A DNA stretch of 31,516 nt from a virus, in IMG/VR virus record IMGVR_UViG_3300020724_000020, one strand, 5' to 3'. Below, in pieces: positions 20,998-21,500 of the stretch. Under the pieces are notes generated by a model that worked only from the letters and a program-made list of their open reading frames with translations, searched no databases and was not told the DNA's origin. How positions within the stretch are numbered: the first letter of the stretch is position 1; each line of letters starts with the position of its first letter. The translations under genes were made by a program, and so were the position numbers.

Positions 20998-21005
20998 TAT
21001 CTTTG
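20998..21005 (+). promoter_or_regulatory. Bacteroidetes-type -7 element TATCTTTG
   Basis: 20 nt upstream of ATG 21026. Confidence 0.4.
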
Positions 21006-21025
21006 CATTACCAAAATATACAACT

Positions 21026-21430
21026 ATGAAAAAGTCAACCTCTAAATTATTTGTTTCGTACCGTGTTGGTGACGATTTTAATGAAAACTGGCAAAAAAAT
21101 GACCATTGGTTAAATGAATATGGCGAAAGATATTGGTATAAAAATTCTGACATAACAATAACTGCACACAGGTCATTTCATTGGGTAGATAGGATTTCTT
21201 TTATAAAAGAAAGTAATGTTGAATGGATGATCTGCTGTTCGAGATACGGTAATGTGCCATCTGAACTTATTCCTTACGGACATTATACAACAACAGGAAG
21301 AAATCATTTGGGTGGTATGACTTACACTAAATTCAAAGAGAAAATTGATGAATGGACGCCTATTGACAATTTCGATGATTATATTCAATTATTAAAATTT
21401 GAATATGAATGTAGAAAATACAATGTATAA
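21026..21430 (+). CDS. hypothetical protein ending CRKYNV (Fam-A-like tail variant, no head)
   Basis: ORF track. Confidence 0.5.
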   Translation: MKKSTSKLFVSYRVGDDFNENWQKNDHWLNEYGERYWYKNSDITITAHRSFHWVDRISFIKESNVEWMICCSRYGNVPSELIPYGHYTTTGRNHLGGMTYTKFKEKIDEWTPIDNFDDYIQLLKFEYECRKYNV

Positions 21431-21462
21431 TTTTTAAAGTAAATAATTTTGATTTTTTGAGT

Positions 21463-21500
21463 ACGGATTTTTTTTCTTTGAGAGGAAATCCGTATCTTTG
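21463..21500 (+). promoter_or_regulatory. inverted repeat ACGGATTT/AAATCCGT overlapping -33 TTTG and -7 TATCTTTG promoter elements
   Basis: 8-bp arms with 15-nt spacer; TTTG at 21477-21480 and TATCTTTG at 21493-21500. Confidence 0.4.

Follow-up and report, generated by a model that had tools for sequence, protein, structure and literature searches.

Two types of AT-rich box at conserved distances from start codons in a putative huge-phage genome fragment

Introduction

Leaderless mRNAs are exemplified by lambda cI transcribed from PRM, and are common in Actinobacteria and Deinococcus. The late mRNAs of phage T4 have Shine-Dalgarno leaders, and in T4-type phages the hypervariable early genes are flanked by promoter/stem-loop (PeSL) cassettes. 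At T4 late promoters, gp55 reads a box, TATAAATA, that spans −13 to −6 (PMC1524935). In Bacteroidota, the sigma-A factor (sigma-ABfr) reads a −33 TTTG motif and a −7 box, TAnnTTTG, which in Flavobacterium spans −12 to −5 (PMC9723704); the −33 motif was not found in F. johnsoniae. Almost nothing is known about how transcription is organised in uncultivated huge phages. Here we describe a stretch of 31,516 nucleotides, IMG/VR record IMGVR_UViG_3300020724_000020 (the whole of which we call the window), wherein two types of short AT-rich box are found ahead of genes: class I, of the sigma-A −7 type (TAnnTTTG, mostly TATCTTTG), and class II, in which an A-tract and a T-run are followed by ATATATA.

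Taken as a whole, the data are in our view best explained by two box types set in one register, of which one would be read by the host sigma-A and the other by a phage factor, giving rise to leaderless or short-leader mRNAs; our confidence in this combination is slightly better than even. Class I is a promoter of a known kind, found here in a new phage. Class II, which is conserved in the clade and resembles the T4 late box, is undescribed in the literature searched. Overall, nothing categorically new is involved.

Results

Class II boxes at the heads of gene units

A first-pass annotation of the window had listed six A-tract-plus-TATATA boxes placed 2–11 nt from a start codon, and a pattern search bears this out. 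The composite A{4,}T{2,}ATATATA occurs at all six positions and nowhere else on either strand, compared to an expectation of 0.13 and a maximum of 2 over 500 dinucleotide shuffles. All six composites are on the + strand, ahead of open reading frames (ORFs) of 96–135 aa, with measured gaps of 5, 6, 5, 4, 8 and 4 nt to the ATG; only 0.74% of window positions are followed, 4–8 nt on, by the ATG of an ORF of 96 aa or more. The composites and related boxes are as follows, where cassette genes are members of a family of small polymorphic genes, mostly in arrays, that is described further below.

1699–1715, + strand: class II composite AAAAAAATTTATATATA, 5 nt before ATG 1721 of a cassette gene, in a 94-nt divergent intergenic region
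7068–7085, + strand: class II composite, 6 nt before ATG 7092; sole conserved element of a 53-nt divergent intergenic region
8126–8141, + strand: class II composite, 5 nt before ATG 8147; heads the array 8147–10850
17186–17203, + strand: class II composite, 4 nt before ATG 17208 of a response-regulator receiver gene outside the cassette family
24279–24293, + strand: class II composite, 8 nt before ATG 24302; heads the array 24302–26342
30817–30833, + strand: class II composite, 4 nt before ATG 30838; heads an array that continues in L012
31–40, − strand: TTTATATATA (then gtat-ATG), 4 nt before ATG 26 of a 193-aa serine recombinase of an IS607-like unit
3926–3933, no strand assigned: palindromic TATATATA in a 40-nt divergent gap, 17 nt before ATG 3951 (+, C1 peptidase) and 15 nt before ATG 3910 (−)
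30372–30377, − strand: TATATA without an A-tract, 4 nt before ATG 30367 of the gene 30071–30367 (−)

The recombinase gene at 26 (−) runs off the left end of the window, and the complete gene is found in L017. At the 30817 box, a second ATG at 30847, 13 nt after the box, fits the N-terminus of the cassette family. Just upstream of the same box lie two copies of AAAATCAAA(A)TTTTTTTTTTGGGGAAAAAT, at 30690–30718 and 30757–30785 (67 nt apart), with a weaker third copy near 30632.

We infer that class II is a promoter because it is orientation-specific, lies at the heads of co-directional units, is the sole conserved element in divergent gaps, ranges from 4 to 36 nt from the ATG within the clade, is absent from internal genes and serves unrelated genes. 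The unit heads include divergent gaps of 40–94 nt that have no other conserved element, and the internal array genes lack the box despite sharing the same N-terminal codons. Upstream of class II there is no conserved block near −35, only the adjacent A/T tract. The box is not a by-product of paralogy, since it also precedes genes unrelated to each other (the receiver gene at 17208 and the recombinase gene at 26 (−)).

We think it very unlikely that class II is something other than a promoter, be it an AU-rich translation enhancer, the operator of a regulator or a recombination boundary for cassette shuffling. The shuffling variant has a precedent in T4-type phages, where genes are exchanged between conserved promoter/stem-loop cassettes, and any of these roles might suit a box that abuts the ATG in the window and whose core, TATATATA, is palindromic. 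An enhancer would also agree with PMC6847099, in which Bacteroidota-type initiation favours A-rich, unstructured upstream regions. However, neither the 4–36-nt spread of distances in relatives, nor the box-free internal genes, nor the many non-cassette genes that follow a box would be expected of such elements, and divergent gaps of only 53–94 nt must hold some promoter, for which the box is the only conserved candidate.

Class I boxes of the sigma-A −7 type

The octamer TATCTTTG had been reported at 4780, 20998 and 21493, which are indeed its only three copies, all on the + strand. Its count is at chance in the window (3 compared to 2.8 expected), as is that of TAnnTTTG (62 compared to 61). 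The placement of the three copies is not random: all are intergenic and on the + strand, and they end 20, 20 and 21 nt ahead of ATG 4808, 21026 and 21522, in line with the 20–45 nt first claimed. The class I and hybrid boxes, and one associated hairpin, are listed here.

4780–4787, + strand: class I box TATCTTTG, ending 20 nt before ATG 4808 of a 37-aa membrane-like ORF; follows the terminator 4728–4750
20998–21005, + strand: class I box TATCTTTG, ending 20 nt before ATG 21026 of a 134-aa gene
21493–21500, + strand: class I box TATCTTTG, ending 21 nt before ATG 21522 of a 256-aa gene, whose orthologs have TATCTTTG at 21–28 nt
21461–21495, + strand: hairpin whose 3′ arm (..TCCGTATC) overlaps the first bases of the 21493 box; covers the −33 region
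19882–19889, + strand: class I box TAAATTTG, 4 nt before ATG 19894, predicted leaderless; follows the terminator 19825–19853
14227–14234, − strand: class I box TAACTTTG, 4 nt before ATG 14222 of the cREC_REC gene 13788–14222, predicted leaderless
27946–27953, + strand: class I box TATATTTG, 25 nt before ATG 27979, with AAAGGAG in the leader
7043–7050, − strand: hybrid box TATATTTA, 4 nt before ATG 7038; heads the minus-strand unit 5276–7038
8099–8106, − strand: hybrid box TATATTTA, 4 nt before ATG 8094; heads a minus-strand unit

The first-pass annotation had called these octamers a classic sigma-A pattern, lying just after terminators and serving genes of higher GC, and we can retain this in part. 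The −7 box is of the TAnnTTTG type, but a TTTG at canonical spacing is absent from all three TATCTTTG sites of the window. The TTTG noted at 21477 does exist; it is separated from the box by 12 nt, compared to the canonical 19–21 nt, and sits in the loop of the 21461–21495 hairpin. A preceding terminator is clear at 4728–4750 and weak at 20963–20985, while at 21461–21495 the 3′ arm of the hairpin overlaps the box itself. The link to GC content is weak (mean 0.28 compared to 0.265), with only 21026–22292 standing out (0.31–0.33). A hairpin in the same place, with a different stem sequence, is found upstream of the orthologous gene in L020 and L023, making three phages in total, and the hairpin that overlaps the 21493 box could be an operator or a terminator–promoter overlap. 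The L019 ortholog of the gene at 19894 is preceded by TATCTTTG-N4-ATG.

A shared spacing predicts leaderless mRNAs

The distance from box end to ATG (d) was tabulated over 282 genes and, independently, over another 181 (463 in total). Both boxes end either exactly 4 nt or about 15–30 nt before the ATG. For TAnnTTTG we see cases at d = 4 (3 and 4 in the two tabulations) and at d = 18–28, with none at d = 6–11. For TATATA there is a peak at d = 4 (10 and 4 cases), followed by d = 5–6 and then a broad range of 15–30. The joint pattern TAnnT[AT]T[AG] is found at d = 4 in 35 of the 463 genes, compared to 0–8 at other offsets, a peak that is inflated by TAAATATA-N4-ATG at KKYNL-stop junctions between cassette genes. 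Given the sigma-A register of −12 to −5, a gap of 4 nt would have transcription begin at the A of AUG, and so the 4-nt spacing of both boxes predicts that leaderless or near-leaderless mRNAs are frequent in the clade.

The idea of two regimes, with leadered TAnnTTTG genes on one side and TATATA abutting the ATG on the other, thus needs some revision. The boxes are distinct and each is conserved, but the split by leader length is only a tendency, because TAnnTTTG also occurs 4 nt from the ATG (14227 (−), 19882 (+) and the L002 and L019 orthologs) and because the TATATATA box also occurs 15–36 nt from it (3926–3933 in the window, and in relatives). What looked like two regimes are two box types, each of which occurs with both leader lengths.

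Leaderless transcripts had first been proposed from the lack of Shine-Dalgarno sites ahead of cassette genes. These genes do lack them, but so does the window in general, including the genes driven by TATCTTTG: a 4-mer Shine-Dalgarno core lies at −20 to −4 in 10 of 73 genes (13.7%), compared to 10.5% of all ATGs, and the A content upstream of starts is about 50% compared to 37% overall. Because the lack is window-wide, it alone is no proof of leaderlessness, and the argument is instead one of geometry. Such a lack is described as normal for Bacteroidota in PMC3155529 and PMC6847099. Three strong sites at 27.97–29.9 kb are genuine exceptions in the window.

27969–27973, + strand: Shine-Dalgarno core AGGAG, 5 nt before ATG 27979 of a 41-aa hydrophobic ORF
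29738–29744, + strand: Shine-Dalgarno GGAGGAG, 6 nt before ATG 29751
29896–29902, + strand: Shine-Dalgarno AGGAGGA, 8 nt before ATG 29911 of a 56-aa membrane-like ORF

Textbook sites had been placed at 27979, 29649 and 29911. The first and last are strong (AAAGGAG and AAGGAGG), but that of 29649 is weak, and it is ATG 29751 that has a textbook GGGGAGGAG before it. These are the only strong sites at real starts, and they belong to small ORFs of 41–56 aa, two of them hydrophobic, that lie beside a candidate structured RNA at 29040–29610 (+). The latter is an ORF-free, GC-richer stretch of about 570 nt that folds better than shuffled sequence (z = −4.6 on the + strand, −3.0 on the − strand) and ends in a hairpin and T-run at about 29563–29600. 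No Rfam family was matched at the gathering threshold, with two sub-threshold matches at the edges; no DNA match was found in GenBank phages, the stretch being present only in contigs of the same phage; and the neighbouring gene has no relatives in IMG/VR.

Both boxes are conserved in relatives

The window makes up nearly all of a 31,893-bp metagenome contig (ENA ERZ27271870 k141_311742), has a GC content of 25–27% and holds dozens of small ORFs. Its MVP-like and TnpB-like proteins match uncultured huge phages (462–735 kb) and Lak megaphages, and the huge phages nearest in GenBank are predicted to infect Bacteroidetes. The window DNA and two of its proteins gave no match among GenBank phages. 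Closer relatives come from metagenomes only: IMG/VR contigs of up to 222 kb, with 71–77% identity in the MVP-like protein, and ENA, JGI and Logan contigs of up to 531 kb that carry orthologs of a 456-aa protein. Our comparative set comprises four non-redundant IMG/VR relatives (L002, L003/5, L007 and L008) and five loci of other assemblies (L019–L023), with a coding share of 81–94%. LR756500 (462 kb), the nearest GenBank phage, was considered as a whole-genome comparator and rejected as too distant, because its first 50 kb contain no TATCTTTG and only three TTATATATA.

A wider search for the same box, as had been advised, shows that both boxes recur in relatives, with type and spacing kept at orthologous genes. 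In the window and relatives together, 15 of 24 occurrences of TATCTTTG are intergenic, and in the relatives so are 24 of 31 occurrences of T-run plus ATATATA. A T-rich consensus at −36 to −27 accompanies TATCTTTG, and in L008, L002 and L003 a TTTG is found at a spacing of 19–20 nt from the box. Class II precedes the first genes of cassette arrays in relatives, as well as glucosaminidase (orthologs in L002, L008, L022 and L023), GNAT, GT2, GIY-YIG endonuclease and TnpB genes. When IMG/VR was scanned for the exact class II 15-mer followed by N4–6 and ATGAAA, 27 loci were found; in seven relative contigs the 15-mer precedes the same 255-aa ortholog, and in L027, L037 and L046 class II lies 5–36 nt before many genes. 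Among individual orthologs, the 256-aa gene keeps TATCTTTG at 21–28 nt in four phages (the window, L008, L020 and L023), the cREC_REC gene keeps TAnnTTTG-N4-ATG in three (the window, L002 and L019) and a gene beginning MNSKP keeps the N4 spacing in two (the window and L019). That orthologs keep both class and spacing is our strongest argument that both boxes are functional.

We treat the window as part of an uncultivated huge-phage genome whose host has transcription and translation signals of the Bacteroidota type. Terminators made of a GC-rich hairpin and a T-run are enriched in the right half of the window (11 compared to 3.7 expected), and same-strand genes are tightly packed, with ATGA overlaps at 44 of 93 gene tails. 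A simple scan for the sigma-70 consensus was uninformative (129 found, 133 expected).

There is a superficial case for a eukaryotic giant virus, or for promoters of the archaeal or eukaryal type with TATA and TFIIB recognition elements (BRE). The classical box A of methanogens is AAANNTTTATATA. Class II resembles both this and the late promoters of African swine fever virus and poxviruses, in which TATATA or TAAATG adjoins the ATG; the MVP-like protein, C1 peptidase, ankyrin repeats and IS607/TnpB genes of the window are common in giant viruses; and one IMG/VR match carries DUF5757. We nevertheless reject this reading in favour of a phage, as barely credible, because of the hairpin terminators, the ATGA-packed arrays and the matches to phage proteins. 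Further points against it are the conserved TAnnTTTG at distances typical of Bacteroidota and the predicted Bacteroidetes hosts of the nearest GenBank relatives. A TATA box would also act about 25 nt upstream of the transcription start, which would then fall inside these ORFs: the ATG lies 4–8 nt after the box and there is no alternative in-frame start about 25 nt downstream. Terminators, operon structure and geometry together speak against the TATA–BRE reading.

What might read the class II box

In the reading that we prefer, transcription units would start at either box type, with a common register of −12 to −5. Class I, together with a T-rich −33 region that would often be the T-run of the preceding terminator, would be read by the unmodified host RNA polymerase holoenzyme. 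Class II, a clade-specific composite (AAAAA-TTT-ATATATA in this phage), would be read by the host core polymerase after redirection by a phage-encoded sigma-like factor, as occurs at the T4 late promoter. A box ending 4 nt (for class II, 4–8 nt) before the ATG would place the start at the A of AUG or a few bases from it, so that the first gene would be leaderless, and a box 15–30 nt upstream would yield a short A-rich leader free of Shine-Dalgarno sites. In the window, class II heads the arrays of small polymorphic genes, the downstream members of which are probably translated by coupling via ATGA overlaps and 1–3-nt spacers. A separate sigma factor or polymerase for class II, as raised in the first-pass annotation, is plausible, and that a phage sigma-like factor may read the TATATATA box is our best guess, made by analogy with T4.

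Several points weigh against this reading. The motifs, with their enrichment, orientation, spacing and conservation in relatives, are seen directly in the sequences; promoter function, start sites and the factor involved are deduced from them. Among the 35 matches to TAnnT[AT]T[AG] at d = 4, 16 are coding tails (NKYNL-stop or DKFNI-stop) and not promoters, leaving about 19 that are intergenic. Leaderless mRNAs are rare in the Bacteroidota studied, at 5.5% and 3.7%, and with the geometry of T4, where the box ends at −6, a 4-nt gap would place +1 on the T of the ATG. No sigma or gp55-like gene is present among the Pfam families listed (25 of 63) for 147 proteins, in genomes that are incomplete. 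With the hybrid TATATTTA-N4-ATG boxes at 7043 and 8099, the two classes seem to grade into one another, which fits a single sigma that reads both. Lastly, the Cellulophaga baltica polymerase can transcribe from T7 A1, and the middle promoters of phi14:2 are sigma-70-like; Bacteroidota sigma-A is thus not restricted to TAnnTTTG.

The last two points lead to a serious rival, although one we hold to be unlikely, in which the host sigma-A reads both boxes. Class II would then be an AT-rich variant of the sigma-A −7 box (TAnnTWTR) in which the adjoining curved A-tract/T-tract makes up for a weak core by acting in an UP-like manner, no phage factor would be needed, and the two regimes would differ in strength or timing only. 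The boxes do share their register, the bases T−12, A−11, T−8 and T−6, and the N4 spacing; intermediate forms extend beyond the two hybrids to TATATTTG at 27946; the C. baltica polymerase uses T7 A1 and the Escherichia coli sigma-70 holoenzyme the phi14:2 middle promoters; and the sequence that could be reached yielded no sigma gene. What speaks for a second factor is that class II lacks the TTTG core that is conserved in three sigma-A motif variants of F. psychrophilum, that an exact 10–15-mer is conserved far beyond the needs of a degenerate −7 box, and that orthologs stay within their class with no drift between the two.

The first-pass annotation had also raised a phage-type RNA polymerase. 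Such an enzyme could have a single subunit or be multisubunit, of the virion or non-virion kind known from phiKZ and AR9; a role for it at class II we regard as quite improbable. Like all promoters of phiKZ-like virion polymerases, the AR9 early promoter (AAATATATATTAT-N6-G) is extended, conserved and AT-rich, as is class II, and a figure legend in PMC7162821 reports RNA polymerase genes in huge phages. However, AR9 leaders measure 26–491 nt and none of the phiKZ transcripts is leaderless; at N4 sites, initiation 6 nt downstream of the box would begin within the ATG; and the register shared with the sigma-A box fits a sigma-dependent enzyme. No NADFDGD-type RNA polymerase motif was found in 622 kb (the window and fetched loci, from incomplete genomes). 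The lone DFDID of the 456-aa protein was considered as a catalytic motif of a crAss-like RNA polymerase and dismissed, as it is not conserved in 51 homologs.

Cassette genes carry terminal peptide tags

The cassette arrays had been proposed to form an island of mosaic origin. This view does not survive the comparison with relatives: the same gene family, with its boxes, is present in every relative fetched, and the GC content of the arrays equals the window average.

1721–2068, 7092–7415, 8147–10850, 14311–17168, 24302–26342 and 30838–31152: cassette arrays, found also in L002, L007, L008 and L019–L023

The window encodes 21 cassette proteins with unrelated bodies (of 210 pairs, only one reaches E < 1e-3). 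Nearly all of them begin with MK[YH][IL]Kx[FY]E, and 18 of the 21 end in KYN[LM], with an array-wide C-terminal tag of K[YF]N[LI]-stop. In both tags, synonymous codons vary at the background rate, so the tags are peptide motifs and not the shadow of a promoter or of leaderless translation. The KKYNL-stop junction (AAAAAATATAAYYTATGA) was likewise considered as an embedded class II promoter of internal genes, but this is rejected as its main cause, as the codons TAC, AAG and AAC are used there at the background rate. The 456-aa member (15798–17168, +) gave a confident AlphaFold model, with a predicted local distance difference test score of 86 and a predicted template modelling score of 0.70, in which the invariant residues 1–19 are disordered and the tail is of low confidence; no Foldseek match to this model was found in PDB (best E = 0.7).

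The tags could serve in sorting or processing, and an analogue is the capsid-targeting sequence of T4 internal proteins. A bolder scheme, which we consider doubtful, would have a leaderless programme (TATATATA-N4-AUG, read by a phage sigma-like factor) drive arrays of tagged effectors, with the tags directing packaging into the capsid and injection. If true, the arrays would be a swappable arsenal of delivered effectors.

The ORF-free gaps inside the arrays exist because cassette genes are broken by frameshifts, at 24605–24905 and about 25566–25660 (for example MKYLKLF / ETKSF... across a T-run). Stop-codon recoding was entertained as their cause and set aside, the gaps being frameshifted genes with no sign of recoding.

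Other features of the window

Two IS607-like units, each with a serine recombinase and TnpB, are present, one at 2152–3754 (−) and one at 1–40 (−) that continues in L017 (1269–3039). In the IMG/VR relatives L024, L033, L041 and L008, TnpB genes are preceded by the same box as the recombinase (TTTATATATA), so these elements either carry the box of the phage or insert beside it.

The MVP-like gene encodes about 805 aa in relatives. In the window, 18542–19771 (+) holds residues 390–798 only; residues 317–388 are found 6 kb away at 12154–12369 (−), fused to another ORF, and the N-terminal 316 residues are missing. The split gene is a rearrangement or a chimeric assembly, and the “ATG at 18515” is not a true start. 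Domains of the signalling type comprise a cREC_REC cyclic-phosphate receiver (13788–14222, −), a receiver without an output domain (17208–17564, +) and a CYTH domain (23608–24015, +).

Discussion

Two boxes in a fixed register would allow transcription units and regulons of uncultivated huge phages to be predicted from metagenomic sequence, and would improve the calling of gene starts in genomes that lack Shine-Dalgarno sites. The class I box would act as an independent marker of host phylum, and class II gives a starting point in the search for its reading factor. If the N4 geometry gives leaderless mRNAs, the clade uses them far more than its presumed hosts (3.7–5.5%). This, if true, would amount to a phage-specific translation strategy that can be tested in a phylum whose ribosomes skip Shine-Dalgarno pairing.

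Of the described systems, PeSL cassettes resemble the arrays in that short conserved sequences flank groups of small, fast-evolving genes unrelated to one another. Here, however, the box stands only at the first gene of an array, and the conserved junctions are at the level of peptide (KYNL-stop / MKYIKxFE) and not of regulatory DNA. Known leaderless mRNAs share with our sites a −10-type box a few fixed bases before the AUG, +1 at A and no Shine-Dalgarno site, an arrangement that here is predicted from spacing. They differ in that we see two box types, at the first genes of long polycistronic arrays, in a system of the Bacteroidota type.

The AR9/phiKZ virion polymerase promoter is likewise extended, conserved and AT-rich, has a TATATA core and comes from a very large phage. 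In that system none of the transcripts is leaderless and the start lies 6 nt after the element, whereas here the ATG itself follows the box by 4–8 nt. The split beta/beta′ genes that define the AR9/phiKZ system were not seen in the motif search of 622 kb, which covers incomplete genomes.

The likeness of class I to Bacteroidota sigma-A promoters is close. Class I matches TAnnTTTG, with TATCTTTG dominant, and the −33 region is T-rich. A start 5 nt downstream of the box would give leaders of 16–24 nt, where the mode in Bacteroides and Flavobacterium is 23–24 nt. The differences lie in the three TATCTTTG sites of the window, which have no canonically spaced TTTG, and in the sizeable subset of class I boxes found 4 nt from the ATG, given how few leaderless mRNAs are seen in the hosts studied.

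For class II, the T4 late promoter offers a parallel, if an imperfect one. Position 5 is T and not A, the adjacent A-tract and T-run are conserved here, and class II abuts the ATG. At T4 late promoters gp55 acts with gp33 and the gp45 clamp, and neither a gp33 nor a sliding-clamp family appears among the Pfam families listed (25 of 63) for the 147 proteins, in a clade whose genomes are fragmentary. In relatives, class II precedes glucosaminidase, homing endonuclease and mobile-element genes; it also precedes cassette arrays and receiver-domain, GNAT, GT2 and IS genes. In both cases there is an 8-bp AT-rich box without a −35 element, TATAAATA and TATATATA agreeing at 7 of 8 positions, and in T4 such a phage-specific box is read through the host core polymerase, as we propose may also be the case for class II.

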